Assembly (NCBI GenBank): GCA_022599915.1
Contig: JAHZLH010000026.1
Span: forward strand, 88,201-152,200
Direction: 5' to 3'
Length of the DNA stretch: 64,000 bases
Source: Actinomycetes bacterium
GTDB taxonomy: Bacteria; Actinomycetota; Actinomycetes; S36-B12; GCA-2699445
A program made the translations under genes and the position numbers. Each line of letters starts with the position of its first letter. The first letter of the stretch is position 1. Positions 14,251 to 26,796 of the stretch are shown here, one piece after another. Below the pieces are notes generated by a model. The model made no database searches. It was not told where the DNA came from and saw only the letters and a program-made list of their open reading frames with translations.

Positions 14251-14714
14251 TTCGAGCGCCAGTAGACCAGCGGCTCAGTACCCGGTCCCAACCGGGCAGC
14301 ATCCACTCGACCGATGACGATGTCGTGGTCACCTGCCTGCGCCTGAGATTCGGTAGTGCATTCCAGCCAGGCCAGCGACTCATCGATGAGGGCGCAACCG
14401 TTTTCTCCGCGATGATGCGGAACGCGGTCAAGTTGGCCAGCCAGTGGGCGACCGCTGGTGGCCAGCCAGCGCGCATGCGGTGTGGCCGCAGCAGCCAAGA
14501 TGGAGACCGACCACCTGTCCACTGCACTAATGGCCTCCCAGAAACGTGAGGTGCGGGAGACACAGCACAACACCAACGGCGGCTCGAGCGATACCGAGAC
14601 CACGGCAGTCGCGGTCATGGCGTGATCCTCTCCCGCCACGCGACACGAGACCACGTTGATTCCCCCCGCTAGCGAGCCCAGCGCATCCCGAAAGGCTAAT
14701 TCTGTGGCGGTCAT
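14202..14714 (-). CDS. Flavin reductase-like FMN-binding protein
   Basis: Typical core GGINVVSCRV...MTATAVVSVSLEPPLVLCCV. Confidence 0.7.
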   Translation of the reverse strand: MTATELAFRDALGSLAGGINVVSCRVAGEDHAMTATAVVSVSLEPPLVLCCVSRTSRFWEAISAVDRWSVSILAAAATPHARWLATSGRPLAGQLDRVPHHRGENGCALIDESLAWLECTTESQAQAGDHDIVIGRVDAARLGPGTEPLVYWRSNYTSLVSESSNSSGSQ

Positions 14715-15187
14715 GAAGGGTTGCCGCCTTGGCCTACGTCAGGCTTGGTAGCCACACTGGGGGTGGCAGCCGGCTTGCGACGCAGTCGGGCGGGAACATT
14801 GACGCACGCGGTACCGATAATTACTCCGCCAAACAGATACACCATCGCGATCGGATCGGACGGGATCGCGACGTCATCGCCAGGCCCCGGTAGCGCCATC
14901 AGCACAGTTGCCAACAGCCAGCCGACGAGCAGGAAGACTCCCGCGCGGCGCAGGCCAAACACGTGAATCACGAGACGAAGTGAAGAAAACAGGGTGGCAA
15001 AGACCAGTACGAGACCCACCGGGATATTGATCCCGACCACCGGCACCGTAATCGCGGAGATGAATGCGCCGAACAGGCCGAGGATGAAGCCGCTGATGAA
15101 AAGAAGCAAGGCGTACGGCCACATCGGGCGGTGCCGGCTCTCGGCGGAGTCGACTACTGCGGCGTCAGCGGATTCCACAGTCATCAC
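14711..15187 (-). CDS. Small polytopic membrane protein (four predicted TM segments)
   Basis: Hydrophobic throughout. Start and stop codons overlap mshB and the flavin reductase by 4 nt each. Confidence 0.55.
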   Translation of the reverse strand: MMTVESADAAVVDSAESRHRPMWPYALLLFISGFILGLFGAFISAITVPVVGINIPVGLVLVFATLFSSLRLVIHVFGLRRAGVFLLVGWLLATVLMALPGPGDDVAIPSDPIAMVYLFGGVIIGTACVNVPARLRRKPAATPSVATKPDVGQGGNPS

Positions 15188-22276: not shown

Positions 22277-23911
22277 TTAGGAGACAACCAGCACAGCGGA
22301 CAGATCGACCGCACCGTCTGGTGCGATCGTCACATCCGACACGTTGGTGGAGTAGCCGCCGACCCGGTTGCGGAACTGGGTGGCCCACGCCTGGAAGTCG
22401 TCGTAGAGCACCTGCTCGGCCTGCTGCCACTTCTCAATCTGTGTGGAAGTTTCCTTGGCCTCGTTGCCTTCCTTCAGCAACCGGTCGAACTCCGGGTTGT
22501 CGTAGCCAATGTCGTTGTAGGGGCTAGTGCTGGCGAAGTTGGCGGCAATCATGTTCTGAATCGTCGGATTGTCAGCCACCCAGCCGACGCCATAGATGAG
22601 TCCCTTGACCGGGTTATCACTCAGTACCGCATCCAGCAGGCCACCGAAGTCCTTGAACACCTCCGGGGTGCACTTCACGCCAGTATTGGTCTGGATCTGG
22701 TTACAGATGGCTTTCTGCACGTCACCAGTCTCATTGCCGAGCTGTGGAATTTTTACTTCATTCCCGGGTACACCACCAGCTCGGTCGATCAGCTCCTTGG
22801 CTTTGGCCGCGTCAAAAACACAACTGTCGCCGCAAATATCGGTGCCGCCACCGGGGATGGTGCTCGGCGCGAAACTGTTGGCGGTGGTGCGGGTGCCGTA
22901 GTAGATCTTCTCGTTGATCTCGTCCCAGTTGATCGACTTCGCTAGCCCAATGCGCACGTCCTTCTTCTTGAAGGTCGGATCACTGGTCGGATAGCCGTAG
23001 TACGAAAACTCCAACGCACCAGTCTCATTGATGAACCGGTTGCCCAGCACGCTGGGAGCCGTTGCGAGTGCGTTTTGCGGCAGATTGTTGGTGACATCCA
23101 ACTGGTTGGCTTGTAGATCCGCCCAGAGTGCGTTGTTGTCTGCGTAGATCTTGAACTCGATCGAATCCGCGTTACCTGGCGTACCGGCGTAGTCCGCGTT
23201 CTTCACGACGGTCATCCCCTGGTTGTTCCAGGGGGATTCCAGCTTGTACGGCCCATTGCCGATTGGCTCTTTTTCGTAGCCCTTCGGATCATCAAAAGCT
23301 GCCTTTGGCATCGGCAATAGCTGCGGGCCACCGACGAAGTTGTAGAACAACGACTCGCCCAATGGTCGAGCCAACTTCACGGTGAAGACAGTGTCACTTT
23401 CGACCTTAAGGCCCGACATCGTCTCCGATTTACCGCTTTCGGCCTTCTTGTAGCCATCGACGTCCAACTGGTCCGGGCCAAGCACAAAGCCCAGCTGCTG
23501 ACCGTTCTTACCGTTGGCGGCATAGTTCCAGGTATCGACGAAGGTCTGCGCGGTAACCTTGTCGCCGTTGGTGAAGGTGAAGCCCTCATTGATCTCGATG
23601 CTCCACGTGGTGCCGTCGTCATCGGAACTGATGTCTTTGGCAAGCTCGGTCTTGACCGGAACCATCGCGCCGGCACTATCAGCCTCGAACTTGATGAGGC
23701 CGAGGAACAGCGTCTGGTTGACCTGATAGCAGTACAGGTCGTAGCAGTTGGTCGGCGTCAGCGCCTGAAACTTCTCAATCGCCATCGAGAAGGAACCTCC
23801 GGACGAGCCACTGTCACTGTCGCCATTGTCGCTGGAGCTGCAGCCTGCCAACAGAAGCGCGCCACCCAGCACTGTGGCTCCTAGCGCCAGTTTCTTCTTA
23901 CCAATCCTCAT
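22277..23911 (-). CDS. Family 5 peptide-binding lipoprotein of the ABC importer (OppA/DppA-like)
   Basis: Lipobox LLLAGCSS. 544 aa solute-binding fold. GAGAGGA SD upstream. Confidence 0.9.
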   Translation of the reverse strand: MRIGKKKLALGATVLGGALLLAGCSSSDNGDSDSGSSGGSFSMAIEKFQALTPTNCYDLYCYQVNQTLFLGLIKFEADSAGAMVPVKTELAKDISSDDDGTTWSIEINEGFTFTNGDKVTAQTFVDTWNYAANGKNGQQLGFVLGPDQLDVDGYKKAESGKSETMSGLKVESDTVFTVKLARPLGESLFYNFVGGPQLLPMPKAAFDDPKGYEKEPIGNGPYKLESPWNNQGMTVVKNADYAGTPGNADSIEFKIYADNNALWADLQANQLDVTNNLPQNALATAPSVLGNRFINETGALEFSYYGYPTSDPTFKKKDVRIGLAKSINWDEINEKIYYGTRTTANSFAPSTIPGGGTDICGDSCVFDAAKAKELIDRAGGVPGNEVKIPQLGNETGDVQKAICNQIQTNTGVKCTPEVFKDFGGLLDAVLSDNPVKGLIYGVGWVADNPTIQNMIAANFASTSPYNDIGYDNPEFDRLLKEGNEAKETSTQIEKWQQAEQVLYDDFQAWATQFRNRVGGYSTNVSDVTIAPDGAVDLSAVLVVS

Positions 23912-24129
23912 GCCTGTCCTCTCGCCTTACGTCACTGCCAGCCCAACGATCGAACTGAACCAGACCGGTAGGGCAACCGGCCACCACGGTCTGTCGTATT
24001 TGCGAGCCTATCGCGGTTACCGCCCCTGTTTTCAAGCAAACAGCGAGCCCAGCCTGCGAATCGTTACTTGCGCGGCCGAGCGACCGATCTTTCCGGACAT
24101 AGCGTGAGGTGGAGGGTGCACCACCCGGG

Positions 24130-24160
24130 TTCGAAAAAAAATATAAAAATCTTGATTTGT
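24130..24160. promoter_or_regulatory. AT-rich tract (contains an A8 run). Candidate promoter/UP region for the divergent opp operon and/or the micro-ORF.
   Basis: ttcgaaaaaaaatataaaaatcttgatttgt sits in otherwise GC-rich DNA. TATATT reads on the minus strand (24145-24140) and TTGATT on the plus strand (24152-24157). No clean -35/-10 spacing on either strand. Confidence 0.3.
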
Positions 24161-24225
24161 GAGGTTTCAGCCGCCCGCTATAGGTGACACCCAGTCTGAC
24201 GGCAACGGCAGAAAGGAGGTGCAAC

Positions 24226-24330
24226 ATGCTAGGTAGCGTTATTGAGTTCCTCGGAACTCCGAACCTTCACGGCAACGGTGACCCAGCCGCAGTAGCGGTG
24301 GCACTGCCGGAGAAGCAGCAGTTCCGATAA
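24226..24330 (+). CDS. 34-aa micro-ORF, unknown function (MLGSVIEFLGTPNLHGNGDPAAVAVALPEKQQFR)
   Basis: GGAGG at 24215-24219 lies 6 nt before the ATG at 24226. TAA stop at 24328-24330. No homology that I recognise. Confidence 0.4.
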   Translation: MLGSVIEFLGTPNLHGNGDPAAVAVALPEKQQFR

Positions 24331-24397
24331 ATCGTTGCGGACGGGCGCTTGCTCATCGCCGGTAACGGCACCAGACAACGCCGAAACCACAATGATT

Positions 24398-24443
24398 ACT
24401 TCGTCGCCCGAGTATGGTGCAAACTGTGCTCGGGCGACGAAGT
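24398..24443 (+). promoter_or_regulatory. Perfect 15-bp stem, 16-nt loop hairpin in the leader of the exported-protein gene
   Basis: ACTTCGTCGCCCGAG (24398-24412) pairs with CTCGGGCGACGAAGT (24429-24443). No clear U-tract on either strand. Confidence 0.6.
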
Positions 24444-24573
24444 GTTCCGGTTAGCCAACCGCCAAGTGGATGGACTTCAGTCCAGATCACGGGGACAGTT
24501 CAGTGCCGACATCGACCGCTCGACAGCACGACTGGACAATGGGTTCGCCCGCGAGTTGGTCCGGAGGTAACCA

Positions 24574-25470
24574 ATGAGTCCGAGTTCGCAACTGTCGGCG
24601 AAGGCAGTCACTACCGTCGGCCTGGCGGCGGTGATCGCCGCGGTTCTGCTGATGCCGACTCTGTTTGCCCAGGCCAATGCTGGAAAGAACAGCCAGAATC
24701 TCGGAGATGCGCCCGAAGGCAAAGTCACCATTTGTCACCGCACCACTGATCCCGCAGACCCCTACAACCAACTCAATCTGGGGCCAGCGGCTGTCGACGG
24801 CAACGGCAACGGCGACCACTACGGTGCACACGCTGGGCCAGTGTGGCGACCCAGCGCGACTGCCGGAGATTCCTGGGGCGACATCATCCCTCCTATCGCC
24901 GGCGAGCACGACGGCCTTAACTGGAACCGGCAAGGCAAGGCGATCTGGCGAAACGGCTGTCTTCCAGCCGACCCGCCGACGAAGCCAGTAACTCCCACCT
25001 TGCCGCCAGCACCCACCCCGTCACCGACACCCAGTCCACCGGCCCCGACCACATCACCGACGCCCACGCCACCAACGACTCCTACGGCGACAGCAAGCCC
25101 ATCCAACTCCCCCACGCCATCCCCGACAGAAACCACACCAGCAAAGCCGCCAAAGGTGCCCATCGTCGTGCTGCCCGCAAAACCCGACATCAAGCCAGGC
25201 GAATGGGTGGACTTGATCGACGACATTCGGGCCGCGGGAGACCTAAAGATCAAAGTCAACTGCCGGGTCAACGGTGTCAAAATGAACGATGTCTGCGCCA
25301 CAGTTGTCAAGAAGCGGCAGATCAGGGTGAAAGCTGATTGCAGCGACAATGTCTCACTGACTGTCCGACTGAAGGCCACTCGCGATGACTTTCGCATCAA
25401 TCGCTGGCGAGGCCGTTGGCAGGTCGACGGCGGCGACTTTGTGGCATGCACCCGTCAAGGAAATGGCTAA
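24574..25470 (+). CDS. Exported protein of unknown function: signal peptide, Cys/His-motif N-domain, Pro/Thr-rich linker, 4-Cys C-domain
   Basis: GGAGG 7 nt before the ATG. Signal peptide ends at FAQANA. Motifs KVTICHRTTDPADPYN, GDIIPP, GLNW and NGC. About 60 aa of P/T/S linker. Confidence 0.8.
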   Translation: MSPSSQLSAKAVTTVGLAAVIAAVLLMPTLFAQANAGKNSQNLGDAPEGKVTICHRTTDPADPYNQLNLGPAAVDGNGNGDHYGAHAGPVWRPSATAGDSWGDIIPPIAGEHDGLNWNRQGKAIWRNGCLPADPPTKPVTPTLPPAPTPSPTPSPPAPTTSPTPTPPTTPTATASPSNSPTPSPTETTPAKPPKVPIVVLPAKPDIKPGEWVDLIDDIRAAGDLKIKVNCRVNGVKMNDVCATVVKKRQIRVKADCSDNVSLTVRLKATRDDFRINRWRGRWQVDGGDFVACTRQGNG

Positions 25471-25532
25471 CTCGGCAACACGGTGACCTGTCGGCGCAGC
25501 GAGTTCCTCACGGTAGCCGCCGTGCAGACCAC

Positions 25533-26612
25533 TTAGGTGTTGAACCGAAACTCCACAACATCACCGTGCTGCATAACGTAGTCCTTACCTTCCATCCGGA
25601 CCTGACCACGGGATCGCGCCTCCGCCATCGAGCCAGCATCCACCAACTCGTCATAGGAAACGATCTCGGCCTTGATGAAGCCCTTTTGGAAATCGGTATG
25701 GATAACGCCGGCGGCTTCCGGCGCGGTATCGCCGCGTCTGATGGTCCAGGCCCGTGATTCCTTGGGGCCAGCGGTCAGATACGTCTGCAGACCCAGCGTG
25801 GCGAACCCCACCCGGGCCAACGCATGAATGCCGGCCTCTTGTTGGCCGATGGATTCCAGCAGTTCCAGCGCTTCCTCGTCTGGTAACTCCACCAGTTCTG
25901 ATTCGACTTTCGCATCGAGGAAAACCGCCTCTGCTGGCGCCACTAACTCCCTCATCCGCTCACGGAAGGCGTCATCGGGTAGTTCGGATTCGTCGGCATT
26001 GATGACGTAGATGAACGGCTTGGCGGTCAATAGGAACAACTCCCGCAGCGACTCCAGATCAAGACCGGCAGCAAAGACCGTTCGCCCAGATTCCAACACT
26101 TGTTGCGCCTGCTGGGCTGCCGCCAACAGCGGCGCCCGTGATTTGTCGTTGCGGGCTTCCTTCTCCAGCCGAGGAATAGCCTTTTCCAGAGTTTGCAGAT
26201 CCGCCAGCATCAACTCAGTGTTGATCGTGGCCATATCTTCAGCCGGCGATACTTCACCGGCCACATGAACCACATCTGGATCTGCGAACGCCCGCAGCAC
26301 CTGACAGATGGCATCGGATTCCCGAATGTGCGCTAAGAACTGATTACCCAAGCCCTGGCCCTCGCTGGCACCAGCGACGATCCCCGCAATGTCCACAAAG
26401 GTCACTGTGGCCGGGATGGTCTTGTCAGAGGTGAACATCTCAGCGAGCACCGGTAGTCGAGCATCCGGAACCGGAACCACGCCGGTGTTCGGCTCGATAG
26501 TCGCGAAAGGGTAGTTGGCGGCTAGCGCACCATCGGGGTTCTTCGTGAGTGCGTTGAACAACGTGGACTTACCGACGTTGGGGAGACCGACGATGCCAAT
26601 AGTAAGAGCCAC
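25533..26612 (-). CDS. ychF: Ribosome-binding ATPase YchF
   Basis: G1 motif IGIVGLPNVGKSTLFNALT and a C-terminal TGS-like domain. Start moved to the GTG at 26612. The track ORF extends to 26732. Confidence 0.9.
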   Translation of the reverse strand: MALTIGIVGLPNVGKSTLFNALTKNPDGALAANYPFATIEPNTGVVPVPDARLPVLAEMFTSDKTIPATVTFVDIAGIVAGASEGQGLGNQFLAHIRESDAICQVLRAFADPDVVHVAGEVSPAEDMATINTELMLADLQTLEKAIPRLEKEARNDKSRAPLLAAAQQAQQVLESGRTVFAAGLDLESLRELFLLTAKPFIYVINADESELPDDAFRERMRELVAPAEAVFLDAKVESELVELPDEEALELLESIGQQEAGIHALARVGFATLGLQTYLTAGPKESRAWTIRRGDTAPEAAGVIHTDFQKGFIKAEIVSYDELVDAGSMAEARSRGQVRMEGKDYVMQHGDVVEFRFNT

Positions 26613-26796
26613 CCCCAGATTGTAGGTAATGGCTCTCGCCCGGCGATGCCCCGGGAACCGCGACGCACTGACCTGCGGTCGCAGGACACTGTCGACCTCA
26701 GCAGATCTCCCTCCCTGAACCCGCGCAGACACGCGGTCTCGCGGAAATGTCGGACCCCTGGGTCATGCTGACACCAGGACGGTGGCGGCCAAAACG

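Follow-up and report, generated by a model that had tools for sequence, protein, structure and literature searches.

Between an opp-type ABC operon for peptide transport and ychF, an uncultured marine actinobacterium carries an interval that raises two questions: does it hold one effector gene preceded by an elaborate leader, as an initial annotation had proposed, or more than one unit, and was it inserted there recently? The window analysed is the whole 64-kb stretch of DNA around this locus, with a G+C content of 61%. Pfam matches upheld the identity of the two flanking genes (SBP_bac_5 and YchF), and the four elements described between them, i.e. an AT-rich tract, a small ORF, a hairpin and a 298-aa ORF, all proved to be present and non-random, with small corrections to their coordinates. 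The locus is real and lineage-specific, yet it is no new kind of system, and in itself it is modest, consisting of a micro-gene and the gene of an accessory secreted protein. On the sequence comparisons described below, we consider it somewhat better than an even bet that the interval comprises two separate lineage-specific genes of a clade of marine uncultured actinobacteria rather than one effector and its leader. Its features, with the basis of each, are as follows.

22277-23911, minus strand: gene of an SBP_bac_5 solute-binding protein (Pfam match)
24130-24160, no strand assigned: AT-rich tract that includes an A8 run; it lies in the putative promoter region from which the SBP operon and the micro-gene diverge (composition)
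24215-24219, plus strand: Shine-Dalgarno (SD) sequence GGAGG of the micro-gene, 6 nt 5' of the ATG (read from sequence)
24226-24330, plus strand: 34-codon micro-gene, ATG to TAA, MLGSVIEFLGTPNLHGNGDPAAVAVALPEKQQFR (ORF list and sister-lineage comparison)
24397-24444, plus strand: strong stem-loop with a GCAA loop and no U-tract (RNA folding)
24445-24462, plus strand: candidate anti-SD segment, the 5' side of a predicted long-range helix (RNAalifold helices 9 and 10)
24551-24567, plus strand: candidate 3' side of this helix, in which lies the SD sequence GGAGG (24563-24567) of the 298-aa gene (RNAalifold; SD read from sequence)
24574-25470, plus strand: gene of the 298-aa putative secreted protein (ORF, with GGAGG at 24563-24567)
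24574-24681, plus strand: predicted N-terminal signal peptide or anchor, residues 1-36 (read from sequence: a hydrophobic core, then AQANA)
24712-24963, plus strand: head domain, residues 47-130 (alignments, profile and model)
24964-25158, plus strand: Pro/Thr-rich stalk, residues about 131-195 (read from sequence; modelled at low confidence)
25159-25467, plus strand: C-terminal domain, residues about 196-298, in which four Cys are conserved and β-strands predicted (sequence and model)
25533-26732, minus strand: YchF gene (Pfam match)

The micro-gene and the hairpin downstream of it

Our comparison covers five lineages, namely that of the window and four sister lineages from other metagenomes. 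The 34-codon ORF with a near-ideal SD site, as previously described, was recovered at 24226-24330 with GGAGG 6 nt from its ATG; this SD sequence is identical in all five lineages, and the ORF is retained in each of them, including the one that lacks the 298-aa gene (L105-L110). Its variable sites fall on codon positions 1, 2 and 3 in the numbers 1/3/9 (binomial p = 0.009), a stop codon is kept in every lineage, and in L101 the ORF shows an in-frame deletion of one codon and a TAA-to-TGA change that preserves the stop. Amino-acid changes are limited to residues 15-23; the first and last thirds of the peptide, which includes the stretch MLGSVIEFLGTPNL..., are invariant. Judged by this pattern of substitution, the ORF is a real small gene evolving as a protein-coding sequence, and it makes a clean comparative case of an ORF of only 34 codons that is a real, selected gene. 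Translation would start from the near-ideal ribosome-binding site and may give this clade of marine actinobacteria a new small protein of 34 residues, conserved and with its own function. The peptide has no match in Pfam or NCBIfam, and a degenerate-DNA scan of JGI metagenome contigs with the first 14 codons retrieved the same organism only. Small proteins have reportedly been found by ribosome profiling in mycobacteria.

The micro-gene is divergent from the SBP_bac_5 ABC operon and lies about 315 nt from it in all five lineages. This position, together with the invariant ends of the peptide, could point to the precursor of a secreted signalling peptide that works with the Opp-type importer in the manner of quorum sensing in Firmicutes. 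We regard such a role as very improbable: the peptide, as read from its sequence, has no signal sequence or hydrophobic export segment, no cognate regulator and no processing or export gene occurs among the Pfam-matched genes within ±10 kb, and the adjacency may be coincidental. We know of no comparable peptide quorum-sensing system in Actinomycetota.

The AT-rich tract upstream of the micro-gene (TTCGAAAAAAAATATAAAAATCTTGATTTGT, 24130-24160), which the initial annotation had noticed, is 84% A+T and the most A+T-rich 31-mer of the window, the runner-up reaching 68%; its A8 run (24134-24141) is the sole homopolymer of at least 7 nt in the 64 kb. Nowhere is the intergenic region less conserved than around it (just 23-52% of columns in 24077-24195 are invariant across the sister lineages), and we rejected it as a specific motif, its sequence being unconserved among these lineages. 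A scan for the sigma-70 consensus gave no match; the tract may represent promoter-proximal or UP-like DNA.

The hairpin lies 68 nt 3' of the micro-gene stop. In keeping with its earlier description as a perfect hairpin, its arms (24398-24412 and 24429-24443) are 15 bp long and 100% complementary; in RNA folds the stem extends to 22 pairs (24397-24444), of which the perfect repeat forms the central 15. Its folding energy of -43.1 kcal/mol compares with -18.6 ± 2.7 for shuffled sequences (z = -9.0, none of 200 shuffles being as good). The 11-bp core (CGTCGCCCGAG/CTCGGGCGACG) is unchanged in four lineages, hence the hairpin offers no covariation. Its arm is not a repeated or dispersed element within the window, and no comparable hairpin was found 3' of the 298-aa gene (z about 0.3). 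The hairpin probably serves as a terminator or 3'-end stabilizer of the micro-gene transcript, which would most likely end at, or be stabilized by, this stem-loop. Of the canonical traits of an intrinsic terminator it has the G+C-rich stem-loop and lacks the U-tract, the stem being followed by GTTCCGGTTAGCC, and a consensus terminator scan that requires a T-run did not report it. Intrinsic terminators without a U-tract, called 'I-shaped', have reportedly been described in Actinobacteria. Like them, the hairpin is a long, G+C-rich perfect stem soon after a stop codon, and its counterpart in the lineage without the 298-aa gene lies between convergent genes; unlike typical terminators, the predicted terminator of the window has a longer stem (22 pairs), stands 68 nt from the stop codon and has a further gene behind it in the same orientation.

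The spacer and the question of a leader

If the interval were a single transcription unit, the 34-codon ORF would encode a regulatory leader peptide and the hairpin would be an attenuator, together controlling the 298-aa effector. The micro-ORF, the hairpin and the gene do lie on the same strand and in this order, a consensus scan found no obvious promoter between the hairpin and the 298-aa gene, and the arrangement, in which a strong SD sequence and a very small ORF precede a structured region and a gene, resembles what is said of leader-peptide attenuation of the trpL and ermCL types. Moreover, the 243-nt spacer has about 30% variable columns, compared with 62% upstream of the micro-ORF, and is constrained as non-coding sequence, because it is the more conserved of the two and shows no codon periodicity.

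Within the spacer, the strand that follows the hairpin (24445-24462) is predicted to pair with 24551-24567, and this helix could bury the ribosome-binding site of the 298-aa gene; such pairing may gate translation of the gene. The likeness to 5' leaders that sequester an SD sequence (riboregulators, RNA thermometers, riboswitch platforms) consists in the UUCCGG-containing upstream strand, which pairs with CCGGAG of the ribosome-binding site, and in the changes between sister lineages, which mostly preserve pairing in the four sequences; unlike such leaders, the region matches no Rfam family and has no evident ligand-binding aptamer. Across the 15 pairs of the helix there are one compensatory change (C-G to U-A), five pairing-compatible single changes and one break, and the covariation score was matched by 16 of 500 shuffles; figures of this kind arise in 5-25% of unconstrained alignments. 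This possible helix, which is all that is left of the leader idea, is suggestive only, because the alignment consists of four related sequences and the structure was derived from that same alignment. No alternative pairing tied to the ORF was found beside this predicted SD/anti-SD helix, nor a terminator/antiterminator pair. The conserved leader of the SBP operon, for its part, gave no covariation support. An Rfam search of the region 23800-25700 with E up to 10 yielded chance-level matches only (at most 18 bits).

Several observations speak against a leader that controls the 298-aa gene. The micro-ORF, its SD sequence and a strong hairpin are kept in L105-L110, where the 298-aa gene is missing and the gene order is SBP, micro-gene, ychF; just 76 nt follow the micro-gene there, and where the window has its hairpin they hold another, unlike it but also perfect over 15 bp (-41.5 kcal/mol, z = -6.5). 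The converse, the gene without the upstream ORF, is seen in L091 and L092; what precedes the two full-length homologues, P0002 and P0003, is just 100-125 nt long and devoid of both micro-ORF and hairpin. The ORF and the gene are thus not linked wherever either occurs. Purifying selection acts on the sequence of the peptide, a constraint that most leader peptides can do without, and the micro-ORF persists without the downstream gene; in both respects it differs from leaders of the trpL and ermCL types. Finally, a ribosome terminating at the stop codon of the ORF would be 115 nt away from the anti-SD strand, a distance at which it could not open that strand directly. The proposal of a single effector with an elaborate leader thus gives way to a micro-gene that evolves as protein-coding and persists, with a different hairpin, where the effector is missing, and we consider control of the 298-aa gene by this ORF and hairpin unlikely. 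The micro-gene and its hairpin are better read as a unit of their own, because in the lineage without the 298-aa gene the micro-gene is followed by a different strong hairpin and next by ychF, and this unit is fixed in all five lineages, with the 298-aa gene as a dispensable accessory gene downstream that occurs in four of them and is missing in one. The case illustrates how a single added sister lineage can overturn the reading of an ORF as the 'leader of a downstream gene'.

Two further readings of this region were rejected. An open stretch at 24349-24570 shares the reading frame of the 298-aa gene, with a single TAA between the two; in lineage L097 this stop is CAA, and gene callers gave proteins of 358 to 372 aa. 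The frequencies of variable sites at its three codon positions (0.31/0.32/0.26) lack codon periodicity, and we therefore regard the frame as non-coding and the long gene calls as artefacts. A decayed duplicate of the gene in the upstream region, an idea that arose from the short repeats GACGGCAACGGCA, ACGGCAACGG(T/C)GACC and ACTGCCGGAGA, was dismissed as chance: the best local alignment of the upstream region with the gene scores 27, compared with 22.3 ± 2.5 for shuffled sequences, 16 of 300 shuffles score equally, and tblastn gave E values of at least 0.6.

Presence and absence of the 298-aa gene

The 298-aa gene is present in four of the five lineages, and the segment 24331-25532 thus represents a presence/absence polymorphism with native composition and without mobility genes. 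The description of the interval as a non-core islet, possibly an insertion, holds as far as lineage specificity is concerned: one sister lineage lacks the gene, and neither the 298-aa protein nor the peptide has a counterpart beside ychF at the 80 best-matching other YchF loci of GTDB species representatives (at most 79% YchF identity), where something different lies downstream of ychF. It does not hold as regards a recent insertion, given the native composition. A comparison of composition and codon usage, as suggested in the initial annotation, placed GC3 and codon usage of the 298-aa gene within about one standard deviation of the genes of the window; this gene has a GC content of 0.615, a GC3 of 0.670 (0.679 ± 0.037 in the genes of the window) and a CAI-like index of 0.681 (0.709 ± 0.029).

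That the 1.2-kb segment was nevertheless acquired horizontally in recent times, as a small genomic islet, would agree with its presence and absence among sister lineages just 8-10% apart in DNA, with the lack of a counterpart in the 80 other actinobacterial genomes, and with the fact that the closest full-length homologues (P0002 and P0003, 39-44% identity) reside in unrelated contexts. Against such an acquisition, which we find decidedly unlikely, stand not only composition and codon usage but also the lack of any tRNA or other Rfam match in the whole 64-kb window at gathering thresholds, of any integrase or transposase within ±10 kb, and of direct repeats on a reading by eye of both segment ends. 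In the four lineages that carry it, moreover, the gene has diverged at the pace of its neighbours, and both genes are under purifying selection in the carrier sister lineages. The lineage without the gene groups with a gene-bearing one (26 informative sites versus 13-14), and midpoint rooting would suggest loss or replacement of the gene rather than gain, the choice between loss and gain depending on an unrooted tree.

The 298-aa protein and the family of its head domain

The initial annotation had described an exported protein of 298 aa to which no function could be assigned. The ORF was recovered, the best Pfam hit was DUF6659 (E = 0.12; 12.9 bits against a cut-off of 27) and NCBIfam gave nothing below E = 0.1, so that no characterized family was found for it in these databases; export through an N-terminal signal sequence is a prediction, consistent with the modelling of residues 8-25 as a helix. 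One further gene within ±10 kb, encoding 157 aa, also lacks a Pfam match. The product would thus consist of an export signal, an 85-residue head, a Pro/Thr-rich stalk and a small C-terminal domain with four Cys. Frequencies of variable sites at codon positions 1, 2 and 3 indicate purifying selection on the gene as a whole (0.14/0.07/0.36), strongest in the head domain (0.07/0.01/0.26), also evident in the C-terminal domain (0.07/0.03/0.36) and relaxed in the stalk (0.26/0.16/0.40). The C-terminal domain is common only to the protein of the window, P0002 and P0003; its β-strands are predicted at a pLDDT of about 60-70, the PDB yielded only weak Ig-like matches (all E > 0.1), and a search with this domain alone returned no match, not even the query itself, and is hence uninformative.

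The head domain has much wider relationships. A profile built from an alignment of 27 sequences (A2), following 39 first matches, retrieved 3,463 cluster representatives (clusters defined at 50% identity) at E ≤ 1e-3 and 2,067 at E ≤ 1e-10, mostly from Patescibacteria and Actinomycetota, including Acidimicrobiales. The ORF of the window, itself among the 27 sequences of the profile, matches it at E = 1e-31 and is the sole copy in the window. The domain bears the signature C-H-x-T ... (N/D)-P-Y ... H-x3-H ... W-G-D-I-I-P ... N-W ... G ... C, and in 470 instances the near-invariant positions are C9, H10, T12, N17, P18, Y19, H37, H40/41, D58, I59, I60, P61, N71, G76 and C84, all of which the protein of the window keeps except N17, replaced by Asp as in 13 of the 470. 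The model is of high confidence (pLDDT 93, pTM 0.85), yet a Foldseek search of it against the PDB gave no match (best E 2.8), nor did a PDB sequence search with the domain; none of the 27 head domains matches a family in Pfam or NCBIfam, phage and plasmid collections returned no match, and the best hit among viral predicted structures was marginal (E = 0.059). A literature search with the motif strings found no publication, and a keyword search nothing specific. The locus points to a large extracellular family, of at least 3,400 clusters, without a Pfam or NCBIfam model or a PDB relative. It is concentrated in Patescibacteria and Actinomycetota, two groups with a poorly understood surface biology, and a name and a characterization for it would provide thousands of 'hypothetical proteins' with an annotation.

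What the head domain does can be approached from architecture and conserved residues, which suggest an extracellular module that binds a ligand or a metal and may be catalytic. The two near-invariant Cys probably form a disulfide, and the near-invariant Cys2/His3/Asp/Asn/Tyr set, which would make up the site of the domain, hints at a metal or catalytic site. The far-reaching statement that the domain is an undescribed fold with a metal-dependent binding or catalytic site of these residues, displayed on the surfaces of thousands of lineages of Patescibacteria and Actinomycetota, and that the 34-residue product is a new small protein with its own function, is one that we put forward as doubtful; were it true, the head could be, for example, a hydrolase for scavenging or a module that binds metals or a host. 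Unlikely in our view is specifically an enzyme, such as a small metal-dependent hydrolase acting as a surface nuclease or cell-wall hydrolase, in place of a passive binder. The near-invariant three His, Asp, Asn and Tyr would fit an enzyme, as would the Cys-His pair that ends the first strand, the His/Asp/Cys-rich tract that adjoins the domain in P0010, and the order strand-strand-short helix at the N-terminus of the model, which loosely recalls the His-Me finger nucleases. Patescibacteria, where the domain is abundant, depend on scavenging. However, neither the sequence nor the fold matches any solved enzyme, the helices of the model are just 4 residues long, and the motif Asn is Asp or Lys in some members, including the protein of the window.

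The module reading is also informed by the 187 family members that we examined, each of which has 1-4 near-full-length copies of the domain. In 131 of them the domain begins among the first 80 residues, and in 82 it is followed by a Pro/Thr/Ser-rich linker, a feature shared by the protein of the window (residues 131-195), which as read from its sequence also fits the family trait of a hydrophobic N-terminus, with AQANA after it. An anchor tail was recognized in 121 of the 187, comprising a sortase-like motif with a hydrophobic tail in 67 and a membrane tail only in 54. Among the relatives in Patescibacteria, Acidimicrobiales and other Actinomycetota, one to four full-length heads stand at the outer end of a Pro/Thr stalk, which is anchored through an LPXTG-type sortase signal or a membrane tail at the C-terminus. 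The protein of the window resembles LPXTG/MSCRAMM-like surface proteins in its predicted signal peptide, N-terminal head and Pro/Thr-rich stalk, as its relatives with L-x-x-T-G and a hydrophobic tail do in their sorting signal; unlike LPXTG proteins, it lacks any sorting signal or membrane tail and ends in the four-Cys domain, and unlike the heads of MSCRAMM-like adhesins, its head matches no described adhesin domain. Its C-terminus (...FVACTRQGNG) contains no L-x-x-T-G motif and no hydrophobic tail, and no sortase (PF04203) was found among the genes within ±10 kb of the locus, so that neither trait checked marks it as an LPXTG substrate; it may rather be released, or held by its C-terminal domain, than be attached by a sortase. 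The gene neighbourhoods of family members are heterogeneous, the larger relatives also contain SdrD_B, SpaA, fn3 and Big domains, and a sortase gene overlaps the 3' end of the gene of P0010.

The interval between the solute-binding-protein gene and ychF

All four elements listed in the initial annotation between these two genes are present and can be read directly from the sequence:

22277-23911, minus strand: SBP_bac_5 solute-binding-protein gene, the left flank, with its start codon facing the interval
24130-24160: AT-rich tract, 84% A+T in a window of 61% G+C
24226-24330, plus strand: micro-ORF of 34 codons, with GGAGG 6 nt before the ATG
24398-24412/24429-24443: inverted repeat, a perfect 15-mer
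24574-25470, plus strand: ORF of the 298-aa exported protein, with its own GGAGG
25533-26732, minus strand: ychF, the right flank, with its stop facing the interval

The tract is the most A+T-rich 31-mer of all 64 kb (the runner-up reaches 68%) and holds the sole homopolymer of at least 7 nt in the window. An Rfam search of the window gave no match. The closest YchF in 185,579 species-representative genomes, from a Nanopelagicales MAG, is 79% identical; relatives of the 298-aa protein or the micro-ORF peptide are absent from all of the best 80 YchF loci kept, where ychF also has other downstream neighbours than in the window. The content of the interval is thus clade-specific, which bears out its description as non-core. 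The 298-aa gene is not the window's sole unannotated gene, since a gene of 157-158 aa about 9 kb away (14711-15187, minus strand; L001:138-611) has no Pfam match on record. As for ychF, its longest ORF encodes a 399-aa YchF with a GTG start, homology to other YchF proteins starts at residue 41, and the protein is called at 367-374 aa in sister lineages; the first ~30 codons are probably not translated.

Many metagenome assemblies hold contigs 99.9-100% identical to the window across the interval. These window-type contigs (L001-L010 and L102) come from at least eight samples of several studies, and the identity holds over 2 kb. This stretch includes non-coding DNA, and sister lineages differ by 5-14%, a pattern suggestive of a highly clonal population that has been sampled widely. 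The sample names (TARA_ records and KOPF15, the latter read as Ocean Sampling Day) suggest marine surveys as the source. The NCBI label of the 298-aa protein is "MAG: hypothetical protein [Actinomycetia bacterium]".

Sister variants were found inside the 90%-identity clusters of both products, and fetching their contigs yielded four further lineages, with DNA divergence among lineages of 5-14% in the two flanking genes compared. Three of them (L097-L099, L100 and L101) have the same gene order, SBP, micro-ORF, 298-aa gene and ychF; in the fourth (L105-L110) the order is SBP, micro-ORF and ychF, and the 298-aa gene is absent. In a four-way alignment, coding regions have 75-95% invariant columns and the usual third-position excess of changes, and the micro-ORF and the 243-nt spacer behind it are conserved far better than 24077-24195, which includes the AT tract and has just 23-52% invariant columns. 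The ~165 nt preceding the start codon of SBP_bac_5 (23912-24076, minus strand) have ~20% variable columns in four lineages, about the coding level, next to 62% in the adjoining 24077-24195. This stretch has no Rfam match and no covariation support from RNAalifold; it might serve the opp-like operon as a conserved leader or operator.

The micro-gene and its hairpin

The substitution pattern marks the micro-ORF as a real gene: across five lineages its variable sites number 1, 3 and 9 at first, second and third codon positions (binomial p = 0.009), and its Shine-Dalgarno (SD) site and start codon are invariant. Amino-acid changes are confined to residues 15-23, with none in the 14 residues before or the 11 after, and L101 carries a one-codon in-frame deletion and a TAA-to-TGA change that retains the stop. 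An overlapping antisense ORF is ruled out as the cause of this pattern by codon-position phase, since third positions of the plus frame are first positions of the antisense ORF. The peptide matches no Pfam or NCBIfam family, and no homologue beyond the clade was found in the collections searched.

Folded as RNA, the inverted repeat forms a hairpin of 22 pairs with a GCAA loop (-43.1 kcal/mol, z = -9.0); the repeat has no dispersed copies within the window. In L105-L110 only 76 nt separate the micro-ORF stop from the ychF stop, and these contain a different perfect 15-bp hairpin, GCAGCGCCGCTAGTT/AACTAGCGGCGCTGC (-41.5 kcal/mol, z = -6.5). A strong stem-loop thus stands behind the micro-ORF with or without the 298-aa gene, at whose own 3' end no lineage has notable structure (z about 0.3). 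This does not fit the initial view of a single effector with an elaborate leader, and the micro-ORF does not appear to be merely a leader of the 298-aa gene. We regard it as a small gene followed by a terminator-like hairpin that, on the simplest reading, would terminate or stabilise the micro-gene transcript. The window hairpin has no U-tract, and its stem is invariant across the aligned lineages, so covariation is uninformative. The genes of P0002 and P0003, the two full-length relatives of the 298-aa protein in other organisms, are preceded by 100-125 nt of upstream sequence, in which neither micro-ORF nor hairpin occurs. The hairpin of the gene-less lineage (L105:1568-1609) lies between convergent micro-gene and ychF and resembles a bidirectional terminator.

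The 1.2-kb segment behind the micro-gene

Given the lineage without the 298-aa gene, the 1.2 kb from 24331 to 25532 constitute a presence/absence polymorphism. A recent insertion is not supported: G+C and codon usage are native (GC3 0.670 vs 0.679 +/- 0.037), no tRNA (Rfam, whole window) or mobility gene (within 10 kb on either side) lies nearby, and no flanking repeats were seen on reading the alignment of both ends. The hairpin of L105 is unrelated in sequence to that of the window, indicating replacement of the region rather than simple deletion. In ychF and SBP DNA the gene-less lineage groups, unrooted, with the gene-bearing L097 (26 informative sites vs 13-14 for the alternatives). Midpoint rooting would imply loss or replacement of the 298-aa gene in the gene-less lineage; a root on that lineage's own branch would imply one older gain.

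The spacer (24331-24573) has ~30% variable columns and lacks codon periodicity. A long open frame at 24349-24570, in frame with the 298-aa gene, was called in the L097 lineage as part of proteins of 358-372 aa; the missing periodicity rules it out as a coding extension. In that lineage (L097:5001-6077; P0188, P0189 and P0193) the TAA at window position 24568-24570 is CAA, so that gene callers added 60 residues and arrived at 358 aa; this extension is probably artefactual. Within the head domain of P0193 (372 aa), 14 residues are repeated (PYIQLNLGPAAVDG twice), which reflects either genuine tandem duplication or faulty assembly.

RNAalifold pairs 24445-24462, right behind the hairpin, with 24551-24566, covering the SD GGAGG. 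In the predicted helix of 15 pairs there is one compensatory change (C-G to U-A), five single substitutions preserve pairing and one pair is broken; the covariation score of the entire structure was matched by 16 of 500 shuffles. As the structure was derived from the same four related sequences, we treat it as a lead, not a result.

The 298-aa protein and its head-domain family

The 298-aa protein, which has no Pfam or NCBIfam match, is under strong purifying selection at residues 47-130, the head domain (0.07/0.01/0.26 variable by codon position), and at residues 196-298 (0.07/0.03/0.36), with relaxed constraint in the Pro/Thr stretch between them. Only P0002 and P0003 share the whole architecture (39-44% identity), including the four Cys of the C-terminal domain; ~36 other first matches have the N-terminal domain alone in common with it. 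For the C-terminal domain, β-strands are predicted with modest confidence and only weak Ig-like matches were found.

At thresholds of E <= 1e-3 and E <= 1e-10, a profile built from 27 head domains matched 3,463 and 2,067 cluster representatives, respectively, among 1.84 billion. In the 187 proteins examined, the head domain occurs in one to four near-full-length copies per protein, usually directly behind a signal peptide. A P/T/S-rich linker follows a head domain in 82 of them; the C-terminus consists of a sortase-like L-x-x-T-G motif and hydrophobic tail in 67 and of a membrane tail only in 54. Large members additionally bear SdrD_B, SpaA, fn3 and Big domains. Named members, all labelled "hypothetical protein", come from MAGs of Patescibacteria, Berkelbacteria, Acidimicrobiales and Actinomycetota, and many of them are stand-alone proteins of 110-170 aa. 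Gene neighbourhoods are heterogeneous. The head domain is represented by a model neither in Pfam nor in NCBIfam, and no PDB sequence matches it. The 298-aa protein is thus an exported member of a large surface family that has no family model, unusual in having no anchor and a private C-terminal domain. The locus comprises a modular secreted or surface protein plus a small gene.

Across 470 domain instances, C9, H10, T12, N17, P18, Y19, H37, H40/41, D58, I59, I60, P61, N71, G76 and C84 are each found in 83-94% of rows; since nearly every other row has a gap left by a partial sequence, these residues are near-invariant among the rows that cover them. With its near-invariant His, Asp, Asn and Tyr and its pair of Cys, the domain is more likely to hold a defined site for a metal, a ligand or catalysis than to be a mere spacer. 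The window's own head domain has Asp at position 17. In a relative from a groundwater Patescibacteria member (P0010; L095:6001-7134), a His/Asp/Cys-rich tract, HDDCDDHHDCDHHDECDEDHHDEHHDEDEDDDCDHH, lies between head domain and anchor, and its gene overlaps at the 3' end with one for a sortase, both of which fit a metal-associated, sortase-displayed surface protein.
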